Positions 317 to 50,698 are shown, numbered from the whole stretch's first letter. The stretch: DNA of 51,360 bases, filler included, from Basidiobolus ranarum (GCA_040143965.1; 2 parts of 2 records of this genome joined end to end with filler, not necessarily neighbours in it); one strand, 5' to 3'. Made by a program: numbers and translations. Notes: generated by a model from the letters alone, not told the origin.

Positions 317-2034
317 TTTTGGAGTCGGATGAGTTTAAATTGTTGATCATTTTCCATTTAGTAATAATGCATGCATGAACCTTTATTAGAGCCTAGATCT
401 ATGCTTTTCCCAAACCAATATCAAGTAATTTCCACCAAACCGTGTCAATGCTGATTTGTTATGTATGCATAACAGCAATTACCGGAACTACCACTCAAGC
501 TCTCTTAACTTTGAAGAAAGATTTATTTGTAGCCATTATTTACACATTCGTAACAAGCTGTGCTAAGGATATGCAAACAACATTAGGATTTCATACTTGT
601 CCCGTTGTGATCAGTTTTTAGCATTGGTATCACAACCACAGCCTCATCAAATAGTATCAAGAGCGTGATACTGACTCTGGATTCAGCTCTGCCTAGATCC
701 TGTATCTGAGGGTTGATGTGAGAACTGCAGCCGTCAGACATTAACTTGGTCTACTTTCAAATTCCGCTGATCTTTGTTCCCCAACTTTTCGGGCACAGTT
801 GTCTATAACTAGTTATTTTGATTCAGCATTCAGTCAGGGTGTTCACATGTTAGCCATTTTGTCAGTTGTCTGATCAGAGCTGATGATAATAATACTGGCA
901 AATCTTAATTAAGATAGCAGCTCTTTCCACTTTGAATACTCTCTAAACCTTCTCCTCTTCATATCATAACCACATCACATCCAGCACAAATGAGGTTCAT
1001 TGCTTAGCTAGTTCATTGGTCAAGAATAATAATCATGGCATATTACTTTATTATCAGCATACCAGTGTGTAACACGTATGCTTAACTACACAATGATGCT
1101 CTAGGTGCATCACCCGAGATTCAACTCCAAGCTCCATTATAGTAGTAATGAGTAGATGGTATGAACTCTAATAGTAATAATGATTGGGCGGCAAGTGTTT
1201 CTGGCTGAGCCGTATGAAGGAATTCGTATTCCTCTAGAATAGTTACGCAGAAATAGCCACTCGTTAAGAATAAATACAAGGTAGGTAAGATTGCAGTTAC
1301 TCTTTGAATATTGTACTAGAAAGTAATAATACGGATAAGTACTTGCATATTGTTAGGTCTAGAAAATACTTCACCAGCTGAATATTCCAAACAAAGTGTC
1401 TAGACTGTGGTCAAATACATCATGCACATATATTTCTAAATTATACGAGTATTAATTACCCTGAAAATCAATATGAAAAATGGGCCCTCTTTTCATAAAC
1501 GGAATAGTGTCTCTTGGATGTCATGTAGTATATGTTTTTTGTACCATCGCTAAATGGAAACTATTTATTGAGCAGTAACGTTGGACTTTGAATATATCGT
1601 AAATTAATTAATTCCTAATAAACTTGCCCGTACCTAGAAAATATTTATTAATCAGTACGTTTTGGAATACATCGTACATTAGCTTGTTCTCCATAAACCA
1701 ACCCGTACCAGTCATTTGGTTTAGGAAATAAGTACAACCAGCACATTCTCACCCTTAGTATTGCCAGTCTGCAAGCCCGGGCACCATAATACTATTATCA
1801 GTACATCTCAATGCTGAATTTCTGTTAACAAGTAAGAGTCTAAGTATTGCCTAGAAATGAGATACACCATGAGTTACACCACAGAACAAGGTTACGTCTA
1901 AGAATACAATTAGATTTTCACTTCAAAGATATAAAAGTTACAAACTCCACTATTATTCAACATATCCTCTGGCTTCTGGTTATCTCTGCCTTCACCAAGT
2001 CCTCAAAAGAATTTTTCAAACTAAACCGTCCGAG

Positions 2035-3282
2035 ATGCAGAAAATGAACTCTGGAGATCTTTACATGAGTGTAAAAATCACTCGTGCTGACGGCACCAAA
2101 CCTCATGTTCTCATCATTGGAGGTGGCGTCTCTGGTCTTACTACTGCCTGGGCTTTACGCAACTCGGGATGTAAGGTTACTGTACTAGCTAAACAATACG
2201 CGCGACATGGAGCCCATGGCGAAGAGATAGTCTCTGAGATTGCTGGTGCATTATGGGAATGGCCTCCAGCCGTTTGTGGTTCCCATGGCAAAGATACCGA
2301 GGAACAGTTAAACAACTTACAACGTTGGTGCCAAATCTCCTACCTTCAATTTAAGGATATTGCTGAGAAGTTTGGTGCGGATAAGACTGGTATTCGTAAG
2401 CGCATGTCATGTTTTCTCTTTGATCGTAAACTTAACACTGAAGGTCTAAAAAAGAAAAGTGAGATTGAAATTGTATGTGATGGATTCAATGACAATCTCC
2501 AAGATTTAATCAAGAGATACAATATCAATACCAATCTGGAGAAGAATGGTTACAACATTGTTGATGGTTATGAGCATCTGTCATATGTGGTTGATCCTGG
2601 AAATTATCTTCATTGGTTAAGAAGATTAGTTGAAGAAAAAGGTGTCACCCTTCTCCAGGGCATCGTTGAAGATACTCTTCATGAGGAAGCGCCTGATCTG
2701 TTAAAGCGCTTCAAGGCTGATATCATCGTCAACTGCACAGGGATGGCCTCCAGAGAGCTATGTGGCGATGAGAAGATGAAGCCTCTCCGCGGAATTCTTA
2801 TACACGCAAAGAACGATGGAAAGAACTTTAAAAAGGTTGAAGGATGCATCTCAATCTCTCAACGCGATGCTGATGCCAATGCTACTGACGATGAGAAAAG
2901 GAAGGCTGAGGAAGGAAGATTTGAGTTTATCGTACCAAGAAACGATGACATTCTTATTCTTGGAGGTTATGCCCAGATGGGTCAAGAAGCACTTGAGTGG
3001 AATGAAAAAGAGCATCAGTATCTGGAAAAAATGAAGGTTGGATGTGTAAATCTATACCCAGACTTAGCCAAGGCCGAATTTGCTGATTATTATTACCGGG
3101 TCGGAATTCGACCATTCCGTGATGAGCCTCGCGTAGGTCAAGATGATAAGAATCCTAAGATCTTTCATAACTACGGTCATGGAGGCTCTGGTTATACCCT
3201 TTCGTACGGATGCGCATTAGACATCCGCAAAGATGTAAAAGAATACTTTGAGAATGAATGCAGGCCTCGCAGTAACTTGTAA
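2035..3282 (+). CDS. FAD-dependent D-amino-acid oxidase family protein, intronless, PTS1-like C-terminus
   Basis: Rossmann motif VLIIGGGVSGLTTA; IVNCTGMAS; GIRPFR; C-terminal DAO signature HNYGHGGSGYTLSYGCA; ends -RSNL. The true start may be a later Met (2044 or 2065). Confidence 0.9.
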   Translation: MQKMNSGDLYMSVKITRADGTKPHVLIIGGGVSGLTTAWALRNSGCKVTVLAKQYARHGAHGEEIVSEIAGALWEWPPAVCGSHGKDTEEQLNNLQRWCQISYLQFKDIAEKFGADKTGIRKRMSCFLFDRKLNTEGLKKKSEIEIVCDGFNDNLQDLIKRYNINTNLEKNGYNIVDGYEHLSYVVDPGNYLHWLRRLVEEKGVTLLQGIVEDTLHEEAPDLLKRFKADIIVNCTGMASRELCGDEKMKPLRGILIHAKNDGKNFKKVEGCISISQRDADANATDDEKRKAEEGRFEFIVPRNDDILILGGYAQMGQEALEWNEKEHQYLEKMKVGCVNLYPDLAKAEFADYYYRVGIRPFRDEPRVGQDDKNPKIFHNYGHGGSGYTLSYGCALDIRKDVKEYFENECRPRSNL

Positions 3283-7576: not shown

Positions 7577-8542
7577 TTAAATACGGTTCCAGAATGCGAA
7601 GGCTGAAATCAAAAGTGCCATAGCTGAACCAGATTCTACTACAGTAGATGAATTTGTCTTGGCTTTTGTCTGAACATCAGGTACAACAGAGCCAGAGGGT
7701 ACAATTTCTTGATTTGTAGAAGAGACGGATGGAGGAGTGGTCACATTTACGGATGGTGGGTTGCTTCGATTCTTGTACATGGGGAAACGATTACCAAGAC
7801 AATCATTCACTGTGACGAAATGGTAGCCCTTAGCCTTTATTCCATCAATGATTTCTGGTGTTCTTTCAACGCTAAAATTAAGAATCTCATGTTGAAGGGA
7901 AACGAAGTTGTCCACTTTAGGATTACCATTGGTAGCAGCGTTCAGTAGATTAGCCTTAAGCGTATCAAATTGGCTGGGTTGTTCCAAGAAGGACCAATCG
8001 CGAGAGTCAATGTTCCATTGGATAACCAGATATCCTAGTTCCTTCATTACTAATCTGCATTGTTCACTACAATCTCCGTAGGGAGGACGCATCATGGCGG
8101 GAACTACTCCTGAGGCCTCTTCAATAGCTTTCTCCGTTTTGAACATCTCCACTTTGATCATCTCGGGGGAGATTTTATTTAAAGAAGGATGGGAGTAAGT
8201 ATGAGAACCAATTTGATGGCCTTCATCGAGGATTTGCTTGAGATGCTTGTTAAACGCTGGTTCTGCTACTTGCTTACCAATAAGGAAGAAAGTGGATTTT
8301 ATTTCCTTTTCCCGGAGAATCTGTAGCAGCGAAGTAGTATAGAGACCAGGCCCTTATTTTGATATAAGCTTGAGAGTGAAAGAAAACAGAGGAAATGTAC
8401 GCTACTTACCGTCATCAAAGGTCAAAGCGAAAGCACCAGGCTGATCACATTTGAAGATGAATCCTTCACCAGCATCCTGAGAATTAACTGAAAATATCAA
8501 GGCTTGAAGAGCAACCCAACCGATGATAACTAGGGAACGCAT
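7577..8542 (-). CDS. Chitin deacetylase / CE4 polysaccharide deacetylase, secreted, probably GPI-anchored (2 exons: 8542-8410, 8352-7577)
   Basis: Signal peptide MRSLVIIGWVALQALIFSVNS; TFDDGP across intron 8353-8409; HTYSH; RPPYG; DSRDW; LQH; Ser/Thr/Pro-rich tail and hydrophobic C-terminus. Confidence 0.92.
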
Positions 8543-16983: not shown

Positions 16984-17444
16984 TTGTCTAATTGAATAAG
17001 TTAAAGGCCTCCGGGGAGAGAAAGGTCGAAAACTTACCGAAACTACTTATTTTTATGAATCTTGATCAACTCTTGTTTTGATCAAAATTAAAAAAATCCC
17101 TTATTTAATAAAATATACATAACATACAATATGATTTGTTCTTGGTAAACATTCCTTTTACACTACACATAATATAACCCAAGTCTATGAGATTCGACCA
17201 TATTGGGTAGATTTAACATATTTTGACTGAAGTGAACAGGCTTGCAAAATAGAAAAGAAATCATTTCAAGATAACGAAGCGCAATGTTGAGTTTAAATTA
17301 TTTATATACAACTTCATAAACAAATATGGATTTTTTTCAATAATAGAAAAGAAACAACACATGAATCTTTTGGTTCGATAAAAATAGTTCGACACATCCA
17401 TTAAATACCTATGGAAATAGGTACATTTATTCTTGAGGAAACAT

Positions 17445-18238
17445 TTAACGGTAACGTCTAAGAGACAAGGTGTTTCTCTTAATCCAGTTATTGCGTCTGC
17501 CAGAACCGATGGTCTTGTTGAAGGCATGTCCCTTACCGTGACCACGGTTCTTCTTACCGATGGCAGTAAGACCACGAGCTTCACGACGCTTATGAACTGG
17601 GTTACAGATCCAGTTGATGCGAGCATCACGGCGGATAGCCTTGTGAGAAGGATCAACAAGGATGATTTCAAAGTACTTGTAAGTAGAATCTTGATTGACC
17701 CAGTAAGAGTTCAAAACGCGAAGATTGGCACATTTGCGGCCAACACGTTCCTCAGCGGTAGCACGGAGGGAGCGTTGATACTTGAGATGGTTGATACCTT
17801 GGTTGACGGGCTTACCGAATTGAGCACCCTTGGAGACAGGTCTCTTACGGTTTCCACGGCGAACACGGATACGGTAGATTACGTATCCTTGCTTGGCCTT
17901 GTATCCAAGACGACGAGCCTTGTCAGGGCGAGAAGGACGGGAAGCACGATGAATAACATTCAATTGTCTACGATAAAAATTGAAAATTGAAAAAACAAAG
18001 GTTATTCATGTTATCCCTGAACAATAGTCATCGGAATATTGGGGGAACCAGTACACAGCCCAAGTTGATTATGATAATCAACCTAGATATAATGCTGCAG
18101 GTCTTCCCATAGCCCAATATTAACCTAACAGGGAAACAATCAGTACCTATACTCCCAGCATCTGACACGAAGCAAAAAGCCCATGACATCGGATTGCTTT
18201 TTCTTGTATAATTCTTCGATATATTTGTAGGCACCCAT
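17445..18238 (-). CDS. RPL15: 60S ribosomal protein L15 (eL15); exons 18238-18147 and 17967-17445; probable 5'UTR intron 18254-18310
   Basis: [58 protein letters not shown]...NTLSLRRYR. Confidence 0.97.
18009..18138 (-). ncRNA. Long structured RNA hairpin within the RPL15 coding intron (candidate cis-regulatory element)
   Basis: Nested helices UGUU-UCCCUG/CAGGGA-UAACA, AAUAUUGGG/CCCAAUAUU, GACC/GGUU, UGCAGC/GCUGUG, CUAGGUUGAUUA/UAAUCAACUUGG; several G-U pairs form only on the transcribed strand. Confidence 0.65.
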
Positions 18239-18534
18239 TGTAGCTTGTGCTTTCTATAAACAGGTGTTAATATGAGATACAGAAGTTGTAATGACGGTTG
18301 CTTTACTTACCTATAATATGTCCACAGTGAATGAAAAAGAGGGAGAACTCACTACCATTTCCTCATATCTTTTATTGATCTGGGAAATTAAAAGGTGACC
18401 CGGCTCCTCTTTTTTTTAATCTTCAGCCAACCATCTGTGTTGCTTGAGATTCATGAAGGGACACAACATTCACTACACAAATAGCCCCAGAAATCAAGTT
18501 TATTCTCATTATGGCTTAGGTTTAGCGATAATAA

Positions 18535-19479
18535 TCAAACACCATACATATTTCTAGCGTTCTCTCGAGTAACAGTTAGTACTCTTTCGAGGGGAATATT
18601 GCTTAATTCCTCAACTTTCTCTGCGATGTAAGGTATCATTCCTGGGTGGGACACTTTGATTCTACCAAATTCACGGTTAATCTTATTTGGCACCATAAAT
18701 GGACCATCGGTTTCTAGCAAAAGTCGAGTGACTGGTGCAATATTTCTTACTATTTCTTGAATATCTTTAGCGGAGGAGAAAGTGACAACACCAGTGATAC
18801 CAAGATAGAGGTTGTTAAAGTGGAATAGTAAACGCTCAGCTAAACTCGGAGAAGAGGTAAAGCAGTGAACGTGAACTTTCCAATTTTTTGGAATATATCC
18901 TTTCATAATCTCCCAAGTGTCTTCTTCAGCCTCTCTAGTATGAATCACGATGGGTTTGTTATTTCGCAAAGCAAGTTTAATCTGTCTTATGAACACTTTT
19001 TTTTGAGTTTCTGGAGAACTTCTCCTATAGTGATAATCTAGCCCCATTTCTCCACATGCGACAACCTTGGGTAAAGATAGGAAAATTTCAAGCTTGCGTT
19101 CAACAGTATCTGTGTATGCTGAAGCATGATGCGGATGTACACCCACTGAATGATATACCAACTCATGCTGGATATCATGATACTTATCAAAATCCTTCGG
19201 GTCACATAGGATATTGATACAAGAGTCCAAATTACTTGGAAAACAAGTTTTGTAAAGTGTATTGTAGTCTGGAATATTATCCTTACCAGCGAAGTCAAGT
19301 ATGTAATTCAGGTGACAGTGTGTATCTACGAATGGTACCTTTGATATGAACCGTAGCTCTTGAGCATGTGGGAAACTCAATCCCAGTTTACCACTTGAAA
19401 ACGGTCTGCGTGAAGTTATTGCTTTTCCTGAAAATAAACCATTGAAATGTGCAATAGCTCTCTGTCTGTAGACCAACAT
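18535..19479 (-). CDS. TatD-family deoxyribonuclease with a basic N-terminal extension (possible mitochondrial presequence)
   Basis: VDTHCHL, SVGVHPH, GEMGLDY, IHTREAEED, HCFT, LLETDGPF; first ATG at 19479. Confidence 0.92.
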   Translation of the reverse strand: MLVYRQRAIAHFNGLFSGKAITSRRPFSSGKLGLSFPHAQELRFISKVPFVDTHCHLNYILDFAGKDNIPDYNTLYKTCFPSNLDSCINILCDPKDFDKYHDIQHELVYHSVGVHPHHASAYTDTVERKLEIFLSLPKVVACGEMGLDYHYRRSSPETQKKVFIRQIKLALRNNKPIVIHTREAEEDTWEIMKGYIPKNWKVHVHCFTSSPSLAERLLFHFNNLYLGITGVVTFSSAKDIQEIVRNIAPVTRLLLETDGPFMVPNKINREFGRIKVSHPGMIPYIAEKVEELSNIPLERVLTVTRENARNMYGV

Positions 19480-19720
19480 AGTTACAGCGAAAGTAGTCAA
19501 AGTAAAACTTATCTAAAATTTAGTAGCCCAGTTTTGATGCTTACAGAAAATTGGGGTCATAAATAGACGATATACGTAAAATCAACCATGAATCAAAGAA
19601 ATGTCCATTGTTACCCGACACAAGATAAAATATATAGAAGATGTATAATTCCATGTTGATACAAAATGAAAGTTAACTGGAACTTTATTTAGAACGAAAA
19701 AGAAATTCAGTCGCAAAAAC

Positions 19721-26251: not shown

Positions 26252-27715
26252 ATGTTACCCTTAATTTCTTTATCTCCCGAGCGCTTCTCCAAACGACACA
26301 GTCAAGCATTTGCTGGACTTCAAAGTATAATACAATACAACATAGATGATCACTTGAACACTTTACCAAAGTCTTCTCTTACTCTTTCAAAGTTTCAAAA
26401 TCTTTCCTTTGCTTTAAAGGAAAATCAAGGGACTCTTGAATTAGTTCACGGTTTGGAGACTTTTGCTCAAAATCTTGAACAAGAAACTATTGTAGTTACA
26501 AAATCTCTATTATACCTCAAAAGGTTACCCTTACCAGAATTTTCGGAGGAACTGTGTAGATATTCCAACCAAACATATCCTACCTTCGAAAAACCAACGT
26601 TACCGCTATGTAGATACAAATCGCTCGACTCTTGTGATGCACCGGATGTCTCCTCAGAAACTCAAGATATGAGCTCACCCTCCCTAAAAGTCGTTCTCGC
26701 TGAAATCTCCCAAGATAGAGTGTCTTGGCAATACAATCAAATTTTGGACTATATTACTAGACTTATTAGCGAAGTATCCTCTAAAAAATGTATTTTAGAA
26801 AACTCTGTTCACGAAATTGACCAACTTTCCAATCAAATTACCTCGAAAAGCAACGAAGTTGAAAAGATCACCATGAAAGCACTCGGGCAAAAGGCCATTC
26901 ATTTATTCAAGGATCACCCTGGGTTGCTTCGAGACTTGGGAGAAGCTATTCGTAAAATAGAAGGAACTTATTCTGTTCATTTCCATCCTTATGTAATATT
27001 ACACGTATTTATATCAGCTATTCAGTACCGTCAACACCAGCTCGCCAGCTTTCTCTTGGACCAGGATTACAATTGGATAGAGAAGATGGCTTCTGATATC
27101 GAGAAGACAGTTCAAACAGCGATCACTCTAGCTCATCAAATTATGCAACAGCATGATAAACTAATGAACTGGCGTCGAAAACTTTTGGATGTCTATCTTG
27201 ATAAGAAGAAACAAATATGCCGAGTTAAGCCTAACAAATACCTATTCGAAAAAAATCAACTTCTTGAGCAAAAGAAAACTTTAACCCATAGATCCTTTTC
27301 AAAACTCCAAGAATTAACTGCGGAAACGGCACAAACAGCAGAGCAATTTCTGACCCACGTTCGTAATTTATTTCATGAAATCGACGAAAAAATCACCAGC
27401 AACAGTAACATAGATCAACACGAACGAGAACTCCTTAGTCAACTCATGACATCCTCTTTTGATGCACCAACAACCACTAAAGCTCCCCCTTCCTACAACC
27501 AGAGTCTCGTATCTAAGAAGAGTACTCACGACCAACTAGAGTTCAATTCACGAGCTTCTGCTGCTCATATTTACTCGTTTGAACTGAAACATCAAAACGA
27601 ACTTGAGCGGCTTCTTCATCTGATCCAGGTCTTGGATGCACAAGGAAAGGTCCTGATCATGGTGAATGAAATATTCTCTAGTTGGGTTCAACCATTTGGT
27701 CATGGTAAAGCATAG
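26252..27715 (+). CDS. Hypothetical 487-aa helical/coiled-coil protein, intronless
   Basis: Long ORF rich in L/E/Q/K/S; no family motif recognised; PPSY motif near the C-terminus. Confidence 0.75.
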   Translation: MLPLISLSPERFSKRHSQAFAGLQSIIQYNIDDHLNTLPKSSLTLSKFQNLSFALKENQGTLELVHGLETFAQNLEQETIVVTKSLLYLKRLPLPEFSEELCRYSNQTYPTFEKPTLPLCRYKSLDSCDAPDVSSETQDMSSPSLKVVLAEISQDRVSWQYNQILDYITRLISEVSSKKCILENSVHEIDQLSNQITSKSNEVEKITMKALGQKAIHLFKDHPGLLRDLGEAIRKIEGTYSVHFHPYVILHVFISAIQYRQHQLASFLLDQDYNWIEKMASDIEKTVQTAITLAHQIMQQHDKLMNWRRKLLDVYLDKKKQICRVKPNKYLFEKNQLLEQKKTLTHRSFSKLQELTAETAQTAEQFLTHVRNLFHEIDEKITSNSNIDQHERELLSQLMTSSFDAPTTTKAPPSYNQSLVSKKSTHDQLEFNSRASAAHIYSFELKHQNELERLLHLIQVLDAQGKVLIMVNEIFSSWVQPFGHGKA

Positions 27716-33090: not shown

Positions 33091-36000
33091 CTAGAACTGG
33101 GTAAAGCCCTGAGATTGGAAGGCCTCGGATCTCGCTTGGGATGACATGTCAAAGACATCTTGACTTAAGAGGGCATCGTCTGTTTGAGATTTGTAACCAT
33201 CCATAAAGCCAGTGGCATCTTGAGACATCAAGGATCCTCCGTTTGCCAACATTCTCAATCGGTCAGATTGGGAGAACCCAATTCCTGATGATAGTTGACT
33301 GTTGAAAGCATTCTGTGTAAATGGACCTTGTGATGATCCATAAGCATTCATATACATGTTTGCAGGCTGAGTGTTCTTTCTAGAAGCATTCCCAGTCTGG
33401 GATAGATCTTGGCTGAAGGGGCCATTGAGCGTGGGGAGCAAAGGAATAGTAAACTGGGATGAAAACGATGCTGCCATTTGATCGGAGGGGATATATCCAA
33501 TAGGGTCATGAGTTCTGAGGAAACTGTCGCTGTACCTTCCTCCGCCACGACGATGATCACTAGCCAAAGGTGGTTTGGCAAATGCTTCGCGTGCATCCAC
33601 TTGATGAATAAGGGTATGCTTAAACTTGTCGTTGTGTGTGTAGGCTTTCCTAGGGCGACTGAACTGAATCATACTGACTTTGAGATTACTGAGAGGTCCC
33701 TCAACAAGGCATCCGTTTTCTTTGTAATGAACCAAGAGATGATGCCACAAAGGATGCTTACTAAGCACCTTAGGATTACCGAGGATGACTACTCCATATC
33801 GAGCTCTGGTAAGAGCTACATTAAGACGTCTGGGGTCGCTCAAGAAACCAATACCCTGATGTTCATTGCTTCTAACACAACTGAGGATGATATAATCTTT
33901 CTCTCTGCCTTGGAATGCATCAACACTAGCAACTTCTATCTCTTTATAGAGATCCTTGCGGAGAGACCCACTAAATTGCATATAGCTTACAATGTAACTT
34001 CTTTGACCTTCATATGGGGTAATGATACCAATCTGAGCTGGCAAAATACCAGCTTTGAGGAACTTGGTCACCACCTTCTCACAGTTAGAGGCCTCAGTTC
34101 TATTCAAATAGGAGGTTCCACTGGTAGAGATTTCTTCCTGACCAAGGTTAGTATGGAAGAACATAGGAGTTTCCGGAACAGGCCAAGGAAAATCAACATT
34201 TTTACGTAATCTCTCTTGGGTAGTAACACCATTCTGCAGAGTACCTTCATAAAACATATTACTAGGGAACTCGGACAGGCAAGGATGCATACGATACTGC
34301 ACTTGCAGGCGAATGGGTCGGATGCCCAAAATTACAAGACGTTCGAACAATGATTGGCATAAACCAGCACGAGCAGCCTTTTTGTTCATGATGACTGGAC
34401 CAAGTTGTTGATGATCACCTACCAATACAGCTTGTTTGGATCCCAGAACGAGTGGAATCAGGCATTCTGGTTCGGCAGCTTGTGTGGCTTCATCGATTAA
34501 TACAGTACGGAAAGTAAACTTGGCGAGACGAGAATCTCCAGCACCAACACAAGTACAAAGGATAACATCAGCATTTTGAAGAATTTCCTTTTCGCATGCT
34601 CTTTTAAGCATCTTGTATTTCCTTTCATCGCTACTACTTAATTCACCTTGCTCAGTCTTGAGCTGAATTAACTTTTGTAATTCAGGGTGGGTATCGTTAT
34701 TTCTGACTTGCTCGTGAAGTGTCAGGAAAGACACAGGACTGTCGAGGGCCTCTCTCGATTTTGCCGTAAGACGAACGACCTTAAGTCCCGTAGAATGTAT
34801 CTTTTCAGTGAGTTGATCAACAGCAACGTTACTAGGTGCACAAACTAACACTTGACCAGGATTCATCTTCGCGAGGTGATAAACAATCGAGGCAGAGGTG
34901 ACAGTTTTACCGGTACCAGGGGGGCCCTGGATTAAACTAAGAGGCTTTTGTAATACGCTCTTGACAGCATACACTTGGGAGTGATTTAATTCGGGAAGAT
35001 TGGGCGCTGAGAATCGCTTGGGCATTTGAGTACGAAGAATTTGGGGTTCAACATCATGACCTAACAATTTGTGGTAGATATAACCACTAACAGACGTTTC
35101 ATCCAGAGCAAACGTCTTCATTGCAAGTTGCATTCTATCAAAACTAGTAGATTTCCATACGAAGTCCACTGAGAAGTTGTGGGTGCAGTCGATTGGAGTA
35201 TTATCGTTTCTTCGGAGTTCAATTCCAACTTCATCACTAACATTATCGGGAACCTTAATTACATGCCCAACACTCTCCCATGGTGCATGAAGCTCACCGC
35301 GATAACGCATTCTTAACTCATCGCCTACGGCAAGTCGAACTTCACCAAGTTCGTATTTTGGAAGATTGAACCAGGCTATACGCTTTTGATTTAAACCCAT
35401 GTCCCAACGAACTACAATATCATCTTGAGTTTGTGATTCTTTCAACTTCTTGTCGTAATCGGCCTCCATCTTAACAAGAGGTCCAAATATGTTCTGGTAT
35501 TGATAAGCATCTTCGTATCGCAAAAGAACCGGATGGGGCTCATCATCAACCCCTGGTTTTTCTAAATCTTCTAAAGTAGCTTCAGTATTATCTTTCCACA
35601 ACTCCTCAAGTTTGTTAATCTGCTGGGCACTAATTTGGCGAGCCCTAAGCTGTTCTTGTTCCGATGGTACCTTTACTAACCAACTTAAGAAAGAACGATC
35701 GTCAATAAGAGGTAACCATTGAGAGGTATCCCAGTTCATATCTTTGCTACTAGGCATAGAGGCGCATGGTTGTCTGCATAACAAAACGACCACAGTATCG
35801 CTCTTAGCTGGAATGAAACCCAACAGGAATACATTCTTACAACCACAATTGTAGCATTCGAGAGTGGTTTCACCAAGAGGTGACTCTGGGTGTAAGATTA
35901 CTTCCTTATGCTTAGCACGAACCATATGGGTAATTATATGGGAACCAGCGGTGTTTCCGCGTGAGTTACAAAACCACTTACTGCAGCTCATACACTTTAC

Positions 36001-36366
36001 CACTGAGGCGGGGGAATGAATTCCACAGTATCTGCATGCATGGGGTGGCAAATTTCGAGCAGCCATATCTTGATCAAGTACGAGATCATAGTCATCCGTC
36101 TCTTCAAAAGTAAACTGATCATTGTGACTACGACGATCCAGCTCTTCGAGAGCTTGAGATTGAGATGGAGAGCCCAATGATAAAGAAGCTAAAGACAATT
36201 CAGGCTCGACAAACTTGGACGTACCATCTCCACCATCGAGTTGTGTATTGAGTTGAGAATTTAAAGTAAAATCTTGATAATCATATTGAGAACCTTGGGT
36301 ATCTCCACCAAATTCAAGATAGCTAAAATCGGCATCCTGTGAGGCTGCCTCTTGGAATTGATTCAT
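33091..36366 (-). CDS. UPF1: Regulator of nonsense transcripts 1, SF1 RNA helicase UPF1/NAM7, intronless
   Basis: CH domain ([24 protein letters not shown]), [40 protein letters not shown]-rich termini. Confidence 0.98.
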
Positions 36367-37008
36367 AGTCAGTGGTCCTGAGATTGGTGAGACGAAGTAT
36401 CTAGATATATGAGTTCCTCCGTTTCACTATTACAAGAGCCTATAGTGGCGTGCAACATGTTCGCAACGATACATCAATTTTACCGCAATGTGAGATCAGG
36501 TGACTAAGGAATACATCAAAAAAGATTTTTTTTCATTTCAATCTTCAGGGAAAACGGTGCGATCAAATTCAGTCTTTCAACAATCAAATTATCTGCATGG
36601 GCATGGGCGAGTGTTAAGCGTGGAGAATAGATCATTGTAATCCTTTTTCCATTCTTTTTCCATTCCACCCCATCCTGATTATTCGTTTAGTCACCACGTG
36701 CTAGAATATTTGTGTACCATTCTTTGTGAACCATTCGAATTTTAGCGAGTAGTGAGTGTTTTGATATTCGCTTGATGGTAAAGATATCCCTGGAAAACAC
36801 ATTGCTGCGAATGACTGTGAAACACTCATTGAAACATGGAAACATTGAAACGCATTCCCCGTTGACATAACGTTTATTGCTTTCGATTTCGCTTATAAAT
36901 AGTGGATATTATTGTATGGTCATATAAACTATGCATTGATTTATGATGTTCAAGGCCCAATCAAGCATTTATGACAATCAAACCAGCTGCTGTTGTATGA
37001 GATCACTA

Positions 37009-38643: not shown

Positions 38644-39845
38644 TTACCATGAGCTTATTAGACCAACAGACGTCATACAGATTATTACCAGGAGATTAAA
38701 CGTTTGAATGTTTGCTGAACCAACTAAGACGGAGCTCAATGAATCTAATGAATTTATACAAATAAGCAAGGAATAACTATCAAAGCAAAATATGTTAGCT
38801 TACCTTGGAAAGAGGTTGAAATATACATGCCAAACCTGGCTGAAAATGGTGCGAGTTTCCCAGGTATAGGCAATGCCTTTTCACCACGCTCGTCAAAGAT
38901 CTTGAGCACATAATCGCTTGAAGTAAGTAACGGATAATCGGTCTGATTCACCTGAGAAGTCTTCCAAACGTAGTGCGTAGTGTTGCCTGACATATTGTAA
39001 CTTACAACGTAGCTATACATTATATCACTTCTTTCAATGACGAGGTTCAGCTGTTGCGGCTTGTAAACCACATCTCCTAGGTACCACTTGAACTCAATCT
39101 CTGCACCAATCTCAAAGTATGGGAAGAGGAGGTTTGGTACTGGTGGGTTAGTCATTCTAATTTCACCAACTGGGGATTGAGGAGTGACAATTTCACCAAT
39201 AGTACCATTCCCCCACGCGATTATCTCATTACAATTCAACACACTGTCATTTGGGCCATATATGCGTCCATAAGAGTTGTAGAGAGAAGTTCTATTAGTG
39301 CACATCTGAATGTTAGTTCCATTGACTATAACTCGGCCACTTTGGTACTGAACATCAGTACCATTGATAAATACGTGATCGCCTTTGACCAAAAGACTAG
39401 TTCCATTTACAATTGTATAACCATCTTTGACAGTGATATTATCGCCTCCGTATATTGTATGTGTACCGTTAATCAGAACCTCCTTCGAATTTACATATAT
39501 TTTAGATCCAGAAAGAGATACCTCAGTTCCGTTATAAGTGCCATTTCCCTTCAGCCTTATCTCAGTGAGGTTTAGTCCGTGGACGAATTGGCGAATTTTG
39601 TCGTCATAACCAAGGCTCTTCGTGAAATTTAGTAGTGCTAGACCTTCTTGAACTTTTTTAGGGCTCACAAGCTTGGCTAAAAATCAGATCAATTAGACTA
39701 CAGTGGTTCAAACTCGCAATAGACATGACATGTACGTACATATATTAAATGTCGAAGATTGTGGTGCCTCGAACGAGCCTTGAGAGAAAACGAATGAACC
39801 CAAAGTAGCAAGAATCAATACTACTCTATAAGCTATCATTATCAT
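38644..39845 (-). CDS. Secreted/GPI-type surface protein with an NGT-repeat region and DUF7137-like domain (3 exons); tandem paralog of the previous gene
   Basis: Signal peptide MIMIAYRVVLILATLGSFVFS; FEIGAEIEFKW...KPQQLNL...YVWKT...PLLTSSDYVLKIFDERG...PGKLAPF...FGMY; last exon hydrophobic. Confidence 0.8.
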
Positions 39846-43523: not shown

Positions 43524-46500
43524 ATGAGCACTTCCAAATGGCCGGATGAAGCTGAGGATAGCGATACTTCAGATTCTGAACACCTAAATATCTCAACCAA
43601 CAGTTCTCAATCTCCTCCAATTCCGATTCCAATACCAAGAACTTCTTACGATGAAACAGATTTCTCTCCTAACCTAAGCAAAAGTCATGATAATCCTTCT
43701 TCATATCAAACGCCCACTCTGGGTACTATACATGAGACACTTCAGCCTCAAGTAGAAAGGGAGTTGCTTTCTGAACCTTCATCATTTAATACTGGCCGAT
43801 TTTCTAGAGCAAGTAATTCACAAAGTTCGACAAATCGTAATACACAAAATACACAACCTATTAATACGTGGGTGCAGTATCAAGAATGGCTCGCCAAATC
43901 TCAATCTATGCGGCGTCGACCTCGCCGTTCTGCTCCAGAACCCTCAACTACACCCAGTTTTTCCCCGACCCTTCCTCAGCGAAATTCAACATTCGACCAC
44001 ACTTTGCACAAATCGAAACAAACTGCTCGCTCAAGCTTGTTAGGAAAAACTCCTACTACCGGAAGTATCCTGGATTACTTTGCACAGAGAAGAGAATCAT
44101 TTTTGCCCTCCTCACCTAACGTCGAAGATACTAACAGTGATTTCGAAGTTACACTTGATAACGGTACAACCAAACAACGAACCGTTTCTATGACTACTAC
44201 TGTAGATGGATACAGGTATAATTTTTTGCAACATGGTTGACTTTTATATGAGATAACTGATATTTTAATTTTTGCAGAATGTCCCAGCATTCTCAAGAAG
44301 CCGAACCGTTGATACCAGATAACAGCTCCAGTGACGAAATGTATTCAGATGATGAATACGATTATAGTAAGAAAGGACTGTATCAATCAATGACCAGGGT
44401 TTTTGAGCCGGTGAAGAAACTTTGCGAACTCACTCCCAGGAAAAAGAATGTGTTAAAATCGTCTTTCGGTTACTTTCTAGCAACCCTTTTTACATTTGTG
44501 CCATTTTTGCGAAATCTTCTGGGAGATACTTCTACTCATCTTGCTGCAACAGCCATAATTTTTCTCAATCCCGCTCGTAGATTAGGTGCTTTCTTGGAAG
44601 GTTGTATATACGGGGTCATTGGCTTGACGATCGGTGGAATGTTAGCTTGGGGGAGTTGTGAAAGTGCATCCGTTTTGAATGGCCATAACTATCATGTTGT
44701 TGGCAAAATAGTTGGTGTCATTGTATTTTGTGGTGGCGGAACATTTATTATTGCTTTCCTTAAAGCAAAATTTGGAAAACCCACCGTTAATACAGGAGCG
44801 TCTCTTGCCTATATTACACTATATGTAGTGTTGATCAAACAAGCGAGTGTACTGAAGATTGAATTCACAAGCACTGTTCTTGAAAACATCGTTCGATCAG
44901 TGCTCACTGGATTATGTGTAAGTTTCGTGGTTGCTTTTACCGTCTGGCCTGTAAGTGGTGGAGATAGTTTAAGGTGAACTTTCCGTAGTACATTCTGCTA
45001 CAATAACTTACAATCTACTGTTAATTTTACTGACTTTTCACCTCTTAGATCCGACATCGCAGTTACTATGAGCTCTTTCCGGCTTCTTCTCAAGAACATC
45101 ACAAAAACGTTCTTGTTAGATCCAAATTTCGATGATAAGATTGACATCCAAACAGCCATGCAGGCCCATCGACAATCTTTTGCCGCGCTTCAAACTTCAC
45201 TAAGCGAAGCACAGCTCGAATTTTTTAATTGGAAGGTAAAATTTCATCATATTCATTATGAAAACTCGTCTCTGTATCTCACGCAATGATGGTCTCAGGT
45301 GTTTTATCATCTTGACCGATACAATTCTGTCATTAATAGTCTCAACCGACTCTCGCAGCACTTAAGTAGTATGAGCAGTGGAATAGCTATGCAAGAAGAT
45401 ATTGTTAAGCGAGTGAAAACCAGAATGAGTTCGTTTTGGCCATCAGTAATGAGCTCGGACACCATTAAAGCATTGGATATTGAAAGTCCGTTAAGCCCAG
45501 AGCAAGAAACCACATTAGCCGAATTCATAAGATTTGTTGGTCCTCCCCTACGTTCGCTAGCCTATGCGGCCAAACAGACCATCATGGAGATTCAATCCAC
45601 TTTTAGCAATGCGAATAAAATGAATTTTATTGATGATGGAACGCTCGCCGGTGCTGTTGATTTTGCCCTTTTACAGCAAAATCTTCATCACGCGTTAAAG
45701 ATTTTTGAGGAATCTCAGATACAAGCCGTCGCCCAACTCTACCAACAGCGAGGAATTGACGGAAAGCCTAATGAAAATGTATTTATCGTATACTTTTTTG
45801 TATTTAGTTTACAAGAATTTACAAAGGAACTTATCCACCTCGTCGGAGCTGTTCGTGAGTTGGAAGAAGAGCAACGTGAAGCAGAAATTGATAAAAAGAA
45901 ATACGGGAAAATATCTTGGTGGACTCGAAGAATGTGGAAGAAAATCCAGCGCCGTCGTATAAAATCAAGTAAGAATGGGTTTATGAACCCTTCATCAGAT
46001 AGGTACTTAATTTAATGTTTAAATAGGAAAACCCAAGGCCCCAGCTCCGTCTATTATACCAGAATTCCCCGATGCGTTAGGAGAACATGACAGACCTCCC
46101 ACGGAATTTCGTCACAAGTTAACCACTCGGGCGTGGGCGTTTTTCTCTTGGTTTCGTCAGTTCGAAGTTAAATTTGCTATCAAAACTGCTGTCTTTGCTA
46201 TGATTCTATGTATTCCGGCCTTTGTGGATGATTGGAGACCTATATTTCGAGCATATCGTGGTGAATGGGCTTTAATTTCGGTAAATTTATTTACTTTATT
46301 TTCTTCCTAACAGATATCTGAATATTAATTGACCCCAGATGGCTGTTATACTTGTCCCTACCGTTGGTGCTTCAAATATGGTGGGAGTATTACGAATCAT
46401 ATGCAATTTCCTTGGCGGCTTCTTGGCAGCAGTGTTCTACTACATGTTCTCGGAAACTACCTTCTTACTCCCAGTGCTAATCTTCTTGGTCTCAATTCCA

Positions 46501-47603
46501 TGCTGGCATTTGAATTTAAACACAAAGTACCCACGTATTGGTCAGTTTACACTGCTTACGTTCAACGTGGTTCTTTTGAGTAAAATCACTTCCAGTGAAG
46601 ATAATGACGTAGATATTTTTATATTGGCATCTCATCGTGCCATTGCGGTGTCTGTTGGGGTGACGGTTGGACTACTAGTCACTAGGTAAGAAGTATGACT
46701 CCAAGATAAAACAATCGGCCTTCTTTAACATCTCATTCTTTAAATAGTTATATCTGGCCGTATGAAGCGCGAGTGGAACTTAGAAAAGGTCTTAGCGACT
46801 TTTTTAGAGACACGAGTAAACTATACCACAAACTCATAGCCGTCTATTCGTCACCTATCCCTATCGACCCACCTAACTCCAATTCAGACACATATTCTAT
46901 TTCATGCCGTTCTCTTACTTTCAATGACCATGATGATATGGAATCGATGGATGAGGATGAACATGACGAAGATTCTCGATTGTTAAACTCCATTCAAACC
47001 AAGCACAATAATGAAATCTTGGAAAATAGTCGTCGGGAATTCATGGATCTTGAGCTATCACTACAAATTAGCCTACTCAAACTTGAAGCCTTACTTGCGG
47101 CAACACCCAATGAACCACGTCTGAAGGGACCATTTCCCCAAAAGACCTACGCCATGATATTATCTTCTTGTCAAACAATACTAGATCGGTTGCTCGCTCT
47201 CAGAATTGCGGTAACTAAGAAAGAGTGGTTTCTCTTGGTTCAGGAAGATTTCTTATTTCCTACCAATCGCGAAAGACGGCATATGGCTGGTAGCATTATA
47301 CTCTATTTATACGTAATAGCCTCTGCATTTAAACTCAAAACTGCCCTCCCTCCCTATCTCCCACCCGCTGCTAAAGCGCATCAAGTTTTGGTCGAAAAGA
47401 TTCGAGAGCTTGATGTGGTGAAATCATCAAAACTACCTGACGACAAAACAGGCAACAAGGTCTATTACGTATATTATTATGCTTATGTGGTAAGTATAGA
47501 AGAAGTTATTCGTGAACTGGACAGAATCAGCGGCTACATGTACTTGCTATTTGGATGCGAAGGAGGCACTGCATTCCAACACTATTTCCAAACAGAACCT
47601 TAA
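43524..47603 (+). CDS. FUSC/ArAE (aromatic acid exporter, fusaric-acid-resistance-like) family membrane protein, about 7 exons
   Basis: Disordered N-terminus; two TM blocks; VLKSSFGYFLATLFTF, VWPVS, KFAIKT...RGEWALIS...PTVGAS, IWPYEARVELRKGLS, EPRLKGPFP, LPPYLP. Confidence 0.88.
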
Positions 47604-48764: not shown

Positions 48765-50698
48765 ATGCAAAACAAAGTCATCGTTGTTGGAGGAGGTTTG
48801 TCTGGGCTTTCAGCCGCACACACCATTTATGAAGCAGGAGGCAACGTTATGGTCATTGATAAAAGCTCGTTCTTTGGTGGTAACTCGACAAAAGCTACCT
48901 CTGGTATTAACGGAGCCTTGACTAAGACCCAAAAGGAACTTGGAATTAAGGTATGTCAATCTTCACAACATATTTGTCAATTTCTGGTTGTTCACTCTTA
49001 TTCGTTATATTACAGGATAGTGTTGAGGCTTTCTATGATGATACTGCTAAATCCGCTAGAGATTTAATCCGCCCTGAACTTGTCAAAGTTTTAACTGGAA
49101 ACAGTGCATCCGCTGTTGAATGGCTTCAATCTCGCTTCAATCTTGATCTTTCCTTAGTTGCTCGTCTGGGTGGACACTCTTTCCCACGCACACATCGTGG
49201 TAAAGAACGTTTCCCAGGTATGACTATCACCTATGCGTTGATGGAAAAATTAGAAGAAATTTCTCGGGCCGAACCACAACGCGTTCAATGCGTTACCAAA
49301 GCTCAAGTAACTCGCCTTATCAAAGATGATAATGGTGGTGTTATTGGAGTAGAATATCAAAAGAAATCTGGGGAAAAACTCACTGAATACGGACCAGTTA
49401 TTCTTGCTACTGGTGGTTACGCAGCTGATTTCACACCGAATTCTTTGATTAAAAAATATCGTCCAGAGTTCATCGATCTACCAACTACTAATGGCGAATA
49501 CTCCACCGGTGATGGTCACAAAATGGTCATGGAAATCGGTGGAAATACTGTAGACCTTGAGAAAATTCAGGTTCATCCTACCGGTTTGGTAGATCCTAAA
49601 GAACCTGATGCTAAGGTGAAATTCTTGGCTGCTGAGGCACTCCGTGGTGTTGGTGGTATATTAGTCAATGGTGAAGGTAAAAGATTCTGTGATGAACTTG
49701 GACACCGTGATTACGTTACTGGTGAAATGTGGAAAAGCAAATTCCCCATCCGTTTGGTACTCAACGAAGCAGCCTCAAAGGAGATTGAATGGCATTGTAA
49801 ACATTATGTTGGCCGTGGATTGATGAAGAAATTCAAGAATGGTCAAGAACTAGCCAAAGAAATCGGTTGCTCTGTTGATACTTTGGCCAAAACCCTCAGT
49901 GATTACAATGGATTTGCTAAAAATAAGAACGATCCCTATGGAAAGAAATTCTTCCATGGTGTACCTATCAACATGAATGAGGAATTCCACGTTGCATTGA
50001 TGACACCAGTTCTTCACTATACTATGGGAGGTGTTGAAATTGACCCAGCATCCAATGTGAAAGGTCCTCAAGGCAATATTCCTGGTTTGTTCGCATGTGG
50101 TGAATTGGCCGGTGGTGTGCATGGTGCCAATCGACTCGGTGGTAGTTCACTTTTGGGATGCGTCGTGTTCGGACGTGTTGCCGGAAATAGCGCCGCTAAA
50201 TACATTTCCGAACATCCTACTCTGCAAGGAAACAATAATCAGGTTGCCACCAGACGTTTGTTAAATATCGCAGGTCAATTAGGAACACAAATCGCCATCA
50301 ATCTAGTGCCTGAACAAAACCGTCTACAACTTGAAATCGTATGGGATGGTCAAGGTCAAAATTCCCCTAATGGCTCATCGTATCAGCCACAAAATAATCA
50401 ACAATCCTCCAATCAAGCACCCCCTGCTCAAGAAAGTAAGGCACCTGAAGCCAAAGATAAGATTTACAAAATGGAAGAAGTAGCCAAGCACAACACCAAA
50501 GATGATTGCTGGGTTATTGTCAACGGACAAGTTCTCGATGTAACCAACTTCCTATCCGATCATCCCGGTGGCGCCAAAGCTATCCTTTTGTTTGCTGGAA
50601 GGGACGCTACTGAGGAATTCAATATGCTACACAAACCAGATGTAGTTGATAAATATTCACCTGAAAGTATCATTGGCGTTCTAGCTAAGAAAGATTAG
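48765..50698 (+). CDS. OSM1: Soluble fumarate reductase (Osm1/Frd1-type flavoprotein) with a C-terminal cytochrome b5 domain; intron 48951-49015
   Basis: VVGGGLSGL, GGNSTKATSGING, LGGHSFPRTHR, QVHPTG, LAAEALRG, HYTMGG, GGVHGANRLGGSSL; b5 motif VAKHN..DDCW...HPGG...HKP. Confidence 0.93.

Follow-up and report, generated by a model that had tools for sequence, protein, structure and literature searches.

A 130-nt RNA hairpin in the RPL15 intron of an early-diverging fungus as a possible zipper-stem-like loop-out

Folding and comparative analyses of a 51,360-nt stretch of DNA (hereafter the window, which holds 88 N) support that a 130-nt rod-like hairpin in the intron of the eL15 (RPL15) gene is an exceptional and lineage-specific fold. 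We tentatively favour the reading that this rod is a zipper-stem-like loop-out, i.e. a lineage-specific expansion of an ancient RPL15 intron which acts, if at all, structurally. The rod would have arisen as a self-complementary expansion, either by inverted duplication or by palindromic insertion, and its co-transcriptional folding into one rod would loop out about 100-130 nt between the weak donor GUACUG and the putative branch point AAUAAC. Because introns here measure about 59 nt, the loop-out would bring donor and branch point to approximately the normal spacing of this organism, and folding of the rod might be needed for, or at least permit, efficient splicing. A structural loop-out is favoured because the rod separates a weak donor from a non-consensus branch point, its inner helices respect the limits of zipper stems, and a precedent exists in yeast.

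To our knowledge, structured introns that bring splice sites together or that sense their own protein product have been described almost exclusively in budding yeast, in which introns are long and atypical. If the loop-out is true, the zipper-stem principle would extend to a short-intron, early-diverging fungus with a very different splicing regime, and the rod would provide a simple means to test the tolerance of short-intron spliceosomes for long inserts. Its practical value is modest, as a candidate for reporter or probing work and a warning for gene prediction.

The RPL15 gene, its intron and its splice signals

A complete eL15 (RPL15) gene is encoded on the minus strand of the window. The coding part of exon 1 (18147..18238, minus strand) starts with an ATG at 18238 and comprises 30 codons plus the AG of the Arg31 codon; its peptide is present in 76 of the 80 related loci that were kept as the best of a metagenome scan. 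The phase-2 intron (17968..18146, minus strand; 179 nt, GUACUG...UAG) interrupts the Arg31 codon between its second and third base. Exon 2 (17445..17967, minus strand) provides a further 173 codons and the stop, and its product has PF00827 relatives with up to 91% identity. After splicing, the reading frame joins to QLNVIHR....

The 5' splice site GUACUG (18141..18146, minus strand) has no G at +5. We infer that it is weak compared with GUAAGU-type donors, which represent the general fungal consensus, a judgement made against that consensus and against local donors obtained with a search pattern that required G at +5. The 3' splice site UAG (17968..17970, minus strand) and the U-rich tract with two UUCAAU repeats (17971..18000, minus strand), which are alternative weak branch sites, were read from the sequence. 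The best branch-point candidate, AAUAAC (18001..18006, minus strand; intron nt 141-146), was chosen on the basis of local yUAAy motifs. Its candidate branch A, intron nt 145, precedes the 3' splice site by 34 nt. AAUAAC is followed by the U-rich tract and is named here as the likely, non-consensus branch point; a second AUAAC sits in the base of the rod. Upon intron retention, a UGA (18140..18142, minus strand) would come in frame three codons past Tyr30 (AGG UAC UGA), and retention would be expected to yield a truncated product and a possible target of nonsense-mediated decay (NMD).

The intron norm of the window was estimated from 14 plausible introns of unverified gene models, which measure 50-88 nt (median 59) and carry yUAAy motifs 12-22 nt upstream of the acceptor. 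They were chosen by eye from GT..AG candidates joining long open frames (a 92-row list, plus one from a 636-row list), preferring a strong donor and the shortest acceptor, with a search pattern that required G at +5. Measured against the median of this eye-picked set, the statement in the initial annotation that the 179-nt intron is about three times the usual length was borne out.

Some further features of the locus were recorded. The 5' leader of RPL15 contains a further candidate intron of 57 nt (18254-18310, minus strand) with the consensus signals GUAAGU, UUAAC and UAG, which contrast with the non-consensus signals of the 179-nt coding intron. The donor hexamer GUACUG is repeated within the rod at a bulge (18049-18054, minus strand; intron nt 93-98), and this copy is a potential cryptic donor. 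Directly upstream of RPL15, on the same minus strand, lies an ORF for a TatD-related DNase (18535-19512). A 1110-aa open frame (33094-36423, minus strand) with Pfam domains UPF1_Zn_bind, 1B and AAA_11/12 encodes UPF1, the NMD helicase. Its nearest relatives from named organisms belong to the Mucoromycota in the broad sense, with Gigaspora at 80% identity, Acaulospora at 83% over 80% of the query, and further relatives in Ambispora, Rhizophagus, Jimgerdemannia and Calcarisporiella at 77-78%, and these matches assign the window to the same broad group. The window's own UPF1 is present among the database proteins (100%), and its own eL15 is absent among the 120 best (best 91%); the source annotation may lack the eL15 gene or model it wrongly, perhaps owing to its unusual intron. 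Other ORFs of the window encode a FAD oxidoreductase (1876-3279), a fumarate-reductase-like FAD/cytochrome b5 protein (48953-50695) and a DUF7137 protein (38757-39683).

Fold and stability of the rod

The rod (18009..18138, minus strand) comprises 130 nt that fold as a single nested hairpin of 48 bp, 10 G-U pairs included. It spans intron nt 9-138, i.e. 73% of the intron length, which confirms the earlier description of about 130 nt in one nested rod that fills most of the intron. The folding energy of the whole intron was -46.7 kcal/mol in the sense orientation (z -2.60; 4 of 200 dinucleotide shuffles equal or better) and -33.5 kcal/mol in antisense (z -1.29; 24/200). For the rod alone, the sense fold reached -44.9 kcal/mol with a z of -3.74 and none of 200 shuffles as stable, and the antisense fold -31.1 kcal/mol with a z of -1.71 and 11 of 200 as stable. 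The rod was also more stable than all 5100 segments of 130 nt taken from the two strands of the window (lowest energy -43.8, mean -22.95, sd 6.35 kcal/mol), and after regression of energy on GC content it ranked first of 5102, with a residual of -20.8 kcal/mol and a z of -3.98. The comparison with shuffled sequence that the initial annotation had proposed thus came out in favour of the rod. Although the rod ranks first, the next values (z -3.27 and -3.20) identify it as the extreme of a continuous tail, not as an isolated outlier.

Other very stable 130-nt folds, with GC-corrected z between -2.7 and -3.3, were observed at 27089-27218 and 8149-8319 (plus strand) and at 47009-47138 and 45089-45218 (minus strand). 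Several of them are rod-like, and none has sequence in common with the RPL15 rod. The fold at 27089 lies within a long open frame, and that at 8149-8319 overlaps an ORF of the opposite strand.

When 331 nt of pre-mRNA were folded, the rod was retained and most helices had pair probabilities of at least 0.9, with lower values for UGCAGC/GCUGUG (0.40-0.58) and GGU/AUU (about 0.7). The basal 10-bp stem is formed by the 5' arm UGUU-UCCCUG (18129..18138, minus strand) and the 3' arm CAGGGA-U-AACA (18009..18019, minus strand), with pair probabilities of 0.57-0.98, and contributes about 14.7 kcal/mol. Its first base is 8 nt past the donor GU; the stem stands 8-12 nt from the donor, and it ends 7-12 nt upstream of A145. 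The ACA that had been noted at the 3' base of the rod is present (nt 136-138) within this 3' arm, where AUAACA also matches the H-box pattern ANANNA. At the other end, CUAGGUUGAUUA/UAAUCAACUUGG (18060..18086, minus strand) forms an apical stem of 12 bp with a 3-nt loop and probabilities of 0.76-1.00, which is the longest unbroken helix of the rod. A 7-nt bulge interrupts the apical duplex, and 7-nt and 4-nt bulges lie on either side of the helix next to the 12-bp one.

Four of the five helices named in the initial annotation are part of the minimum-energy fold. The fifth, AAUAUUGGG/CCCAAUAUU, is a perfect 9-bp complement and is absent from the favoured fold, its pair probabilities being 0.00; forcing it costs 10.3 kcal/mol (-36.4 vs -46.7). 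In its place, the favoured fold uses a shifted register made of UAUUGGG/UCCGAUG, UAU/AUA and GGG/CCC.

Pairs that are G-U on the transcribed strand and A-C mismatches on the other had been put forward as a signature of RNA-level symmetry. Such pairs are present: 10 of the 48 pairs are G-U and 38 are Watson-Crick, and three A-C oppositions, read off the drawing, lie in symmetric loops. The contrast of 10 to 3 gave a one-sided binomial value of about 0.05 when calculated by hand, from a count that is biased by the choice of fold. As a signature it is not statistically distinctive, as the sense-antisense energy gap of 13.8 kcal/mol was matched at 139 of 2551 positions of the window. This gap is ordinary, and the sense strand is G+U-rich (57% G+U); the strand specificity is real and by itself is no proof of RNA-level selection. 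Strand asymmetry was rejected as such a proof, because those 139 positions differ as much.

The putative branch region AUGAAUAACCUU is complementary at 11 of 12 positions to AAUGUUAUUCAU, where exon 2 begins (17998-18009 with 17949-17960, minus strand). The resulting helix of 9-11 bp had a probability of 0.94 in the 331-nt fold and was dismissed as evidence on account of its local z of -1.66, with 15 of 200 shuffles equal or better.

Age of the intron site and origin of the rod

The metagenome scan for eL15 loci gave 592 stretches, 573 of them confirmed, and the best 80 were kept. Exons 1 and 2 were contiguous in 64 of these 80 loci (cDNA or intronless), three loci were without exon 1 upstream and one without the start of exon 2. 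The other 12 were gapped, with an intron at the same site in two, 5 nt upstream in six, about 10 nt upstream in three and none there in one (L073). The two same-site introns, those of L038 and L047, share both site and phase with that of the window's eL15 and are unstructured (61 nt and 0 kcal/mol in L038; 109 nt and a z of 0.10 in L047). A rod in a close relative was found in none of the best 80 metagenome loci. Among named organisms, the nearest eL15 proteins reach 86-87% identity and belong to several phyla, and the Endogone model P0009 has 37 extra residues at the place of the eL15 intron.

The best eL15 match, P0002 (91% identity), is a gene-caller ORF that runs across an intron located at the same site. 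It begins in exon 1 out of frame, where 9 of 15 residues are identical to the corresponding frame of the window (E 8e-4), reads 23 intron codons and then continues in frame into exon 2. The implied intron has a GUAUGC donor and measures 2+69+2 = 73 nt, which is too short for the rod. P0002 is the closest eL15 relative compared, at an evolutionary distance from the window's gene that may be large. The presence of same-site introns in L038, L047 and P0002 indicates that the intron site is ancient and that the rod is not. Given the intron of only about 73 nt in P0002, the sole informative relative, the rod is lineage-specific within the reach of this comparison, and the conservation that the initial annotation had proposed to look for was not seen there.

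An origin without a selected role was weighed against the loop-out. The rod could be a neutral relic, i.e. a decaying inverted duplication, a MITE-like insert or an introner-like or internally symmetrical intron, that folds only because of how it arose and is tolerated; we consider this rather unlikely, and take it more seriously than the remaining alternatives. The absence of the rod from the ~73-nt intron of P0002 points this way, as do the modest DNA-level complementarity (38/48 Watson-Crick), the unremarkable strand asymmetry and the further rod-like folds of the window. Earlier reports provide parallels: fungal introner-like elements are described as longer than regular introns and have stable predicted structures (PMC3609843), and introns of Hypoxylaceae carry terminal inverted repeats of 45-55 nt (PMC8469720). 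The RPL15 intron likewise exceeds the genomic norm and holds a stable hairpin, a likeness to these introner-like and internally symmetrical (stw)introns. Those elements and introns, in contrast, occur as many near-identical copies at new positions, whereas the rod occupies an ancient position and is a single copy in 51 kb.

Several results speak against a relic. Apart from itself and its own apical palindrome, the intron matched nothing in the window (blastn-short) beyond stretches of at most 14 nt with E of at least 1.7, so that the many copies that would have marked a MITE were not encountered, no second copy being present within the 51-kb window. No direct repeat that would represent a target-site duplication was seen at the flanks of the rod (UUG, then UUUCCCUG ... 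CAGGGAUAA, then CAUG); the rod as a whole is an imperfect palindrome, and an old target-site duplication could have decayed. The ancient intron site (L038, L047, P0002) argues that the intron as a whole is no new gain, and the G-U excess described above also weighs on this side, with the same bias of the count. In sequence, a neutral palindrome would look identical to a zipper stem, and the relic and the loop-out would be inseparable by that means. A protein-level search for introns of relatives that gene callers had translated, made with the 92-aa ORF formed by exon 1 out of frame and the first 119 nt of the intron, gave no candidates.

Splicing control, small RNAs and other RPL15 introns

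The loop-out that we favour takes its principle from the zipper stems that are known from the long introns of budding-yeast ribosomal-protein genes. Such stems are common in these introns and poorly conserved between species (PMC12350175). In the RPL15 intron, the arrangement that defines such a stem (PMC12350175) was found, with the 48-bp rod (nt 9-138) between the donor (nt 1-6) and the putative branch point (nt 141-146). The inner helix of nt 28-34 with nt 112-118 lies within the three limits of the yeast A-complex model (PMC12350175), with values of 27, 27 and about 53 nt for the putative branch point. The basal 10 bp fall outside those limits, with distances of 8-12 nt to the donor and 7-12 nt to A145. 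As the basal stem is too near both the donor and AAUAAC by yeast-derived limits, it would have to open, and the full rod could hinder splicing. This geometry would change if the branch point were a downstream UUCAAU. Without the rod, 49 nt of intron remain (179 - 130), which fits the zipper reading when compared with the 50-88 nt of local introns and with the 57 nt of the candidate leader intron.

The nearest parallels are the S. cerevisiae zipper stems of RPS17B and RPL7A/B. In RPL7B, the stem is able to offset a branch point that departs from the consensus (PMC12311795), an association that resembles the one proposed here. Unlike these stems, whose host introns measure about 400 nt, the rod belongs to an early-diverging fungus with introns of about 59 nt, forms one continuous 48-bp structure that makes up 73% of the intron, and has its basal stem nearer to the donor and the putative branch point than is permitted by the model for yeast. 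The poor conservation of zipper stems in yeast fits the absence of the rod from P0002. The strand asymmetry of the rod, which would be expected under selection for RNA folding, is not distinctive, and this counts against the zipper reading.

The initial annotation had raised the possibility of autoregulation. Excess free eL15 would bind the rod or its base, stabilise the basal stem and block spliceosome assembly, and the retained-intron transcript would be directed to NMD; we regard such a switch as improbable. The non-consensus donor and branch point, which are directly flanked by the 10-bp basal stem of about 14.7 kcal/mol, keep a regulatory reading alive. Retention would give an immediate in-frame stop, and the window also encodes UPF1. 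In yeast, structures within introns mediate the autoregulation of several ribosomal-protein genes (PMC13232506, PMC4838235 and PMC12311795), and the conserved covarying stem-loop of Pezizomycotina-like RPL15 introns (see below) indicates that RPL15 introns can hold constrained structure.

Against autoregulation, the rod is absent in P0002, the 91% relative, the covariance model of the Pezizomycotina stem-loop matches nothing in the window's intron, and Rfam gave no match. Autoregulatory elements can be recognized by a structure that orthologous introns conserve with covariation, and P0002, L038 and L047 showed none. A literature search gave no RPL15 intron element and no eukaryotic example of eL15 feedback. 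The terms RPL15 and L15 are absent from the main texts of PMC7732827 (a feedback screen in yeast), PMC5640933 and PMC8216456. With the elements of RPL30, RPL22B, RPS9, RPL7B, RPL18B and RPS22B, the rod shares the presence of structured RNA in the gene's own intron beside suboptimal splice signals and a non-productive retention product. Those elements, unlike the rod, are conserved among related yeasts and have a demonstrated protein binding or dosage response, while the rod is not conserved in the nearest relative. Candidate eL15 leaders of archaea are included in Rfam.

An extended version of the autoregulatory proposal, which we likewise hold to be quite unlikely, makes the rod an eL15 feedback sensor: free eL15 would clamp the basal stem between the weak donor and the branch point, the retained intron would lead to NMD via the UGA, and, together with the Pezizomycotina stem-loop, this would amount to repeated evolution of RPL15 splicing control. 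If true, such control would have evolved repeatedly in fungi, with different RNA structures in the same ancient intron. If eL15-responsive, the rod would be the first eukaryotic eL15 feedback element.

The rod might also be the precursor of a small RNA, either an intron-encoded single-hairpin H/ACA-like RNA, as the initial annotation had suggested as an alternative, or a Dicer-processed hairpin of mirtron or milRNA type; this is the least likely of the readings considered, and a very improbable one. Intron-encoded H/ACA snoRNAs resemble it in combining an intronic hairpin followed by ACA with a ribosomal-protein host gene, and the ACA lies 2 nt past the UCCCUG/CAGGGA stem. Internal loops of the favoured fold do not exceed 3+3 nt, and opening of the weak GGU/AUU helix would create a 9+9 loop 17 nt upstream of the ACA, compared with the 14-16 nt that canonically separate the pseudouridylation pocket from the box. 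The nearest UPF1 relatives from named organisms are Mucoromycota, a group with RNAi, which would suit a processed hairpin.

Other features do not fit such a precursor. H/ACA snoRNAs have two hairpins of about 65 nt and an H box, and here there is a single hairpin of 130 nt, with an upper stem far longer than in H/ACA RNAs. The 41 nt past the rod consist of the branch region and the U tract, with no second hairpin or ACA, and the H/ACA assignment was rejected: the two-hairpin layout with H box and ACA expected in fungi is missing, and Rfam gave no match. The geometry of the pocket is approximated. Box C/D snoRNAs carry a C box (RUGAUGA) near the 5' end, a D box (CUGA) near the 3' end and a terminal stem. 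This class was also rejected, as the only CUGA is at nt 4-7 and the GAUGA at nt 115-119, which is the wrong order, with no CUGA downstream. With a longest uninterrupted helix of 12 bp, compared with the duplex of roughly 21 bp free of large bulges that is expected of such precursors, the rod is probably a poor Dicer-type precursor, its apical duplex is interrupted by the 7-nt bulge, and the rod is absent from P0002. The search of Rfam 15 with E up to 10 over 17000-19000 returned one unrelated match outside the intron, and the entire window gave no matches at gathering scores.

In Pezizomycotina-like contigs, the 3' end of the RPL15 intron was observed to carry a conserved stem-loop that is unrelated in sequence to the rod. 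Its positions are L016:1455-1506, L021:1-50, L022:163-216, L023:330-385, L025:1449-1506 and L070:1453-1506; over this region L071 does not differ from L070, and L059 contains a part of the stem-loop (1-34). The first six loci have their best protein matches in Pezizomycotina and their intron 5 nt upstream, after Glu29. These loci share a block of about 35 nt directly before the acceptor, and outside this block the introns differ, with a range of 68 to 294 nt. All 30 cells of the 5-bp core stem are paired, and two of its pairs show compensatory changes (U-A/C-G and U-A/U-G/C-G). Its score was reached by 12 of 500 shuffles, and RNAalifold gave the same stem, which extends to 11-12 bp in three of four complete introns in single-sequence folds.

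The covariance model built on this stem-loop recovered all 8 loci (E of 2.4e-5 or lower), with nothing else convincing among the best 80. Applied to the window, it gave 13 weak matches, the best with 11.2 bits and an E of 0.48, and none in the eL15 intron, which shows that the rod and the stem-loop are unrelated in sequence. No Rfam match to the stem-loop was obtained, and two screens for fungal ncRNAs do not mention RPL15 in their main text. The stem-loop is a candidate regulatory element, with better comparative support than the rod. Its 15-nt loop is nearly invariant (14 of 15 columns invariant or two-state) and ends in GCUGA, the likely branch point; in L022 and L023, no other branch candidate of the CUGA type lies near the acceptor. 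The loop may bear some resemblance to 5.8S rRNA.
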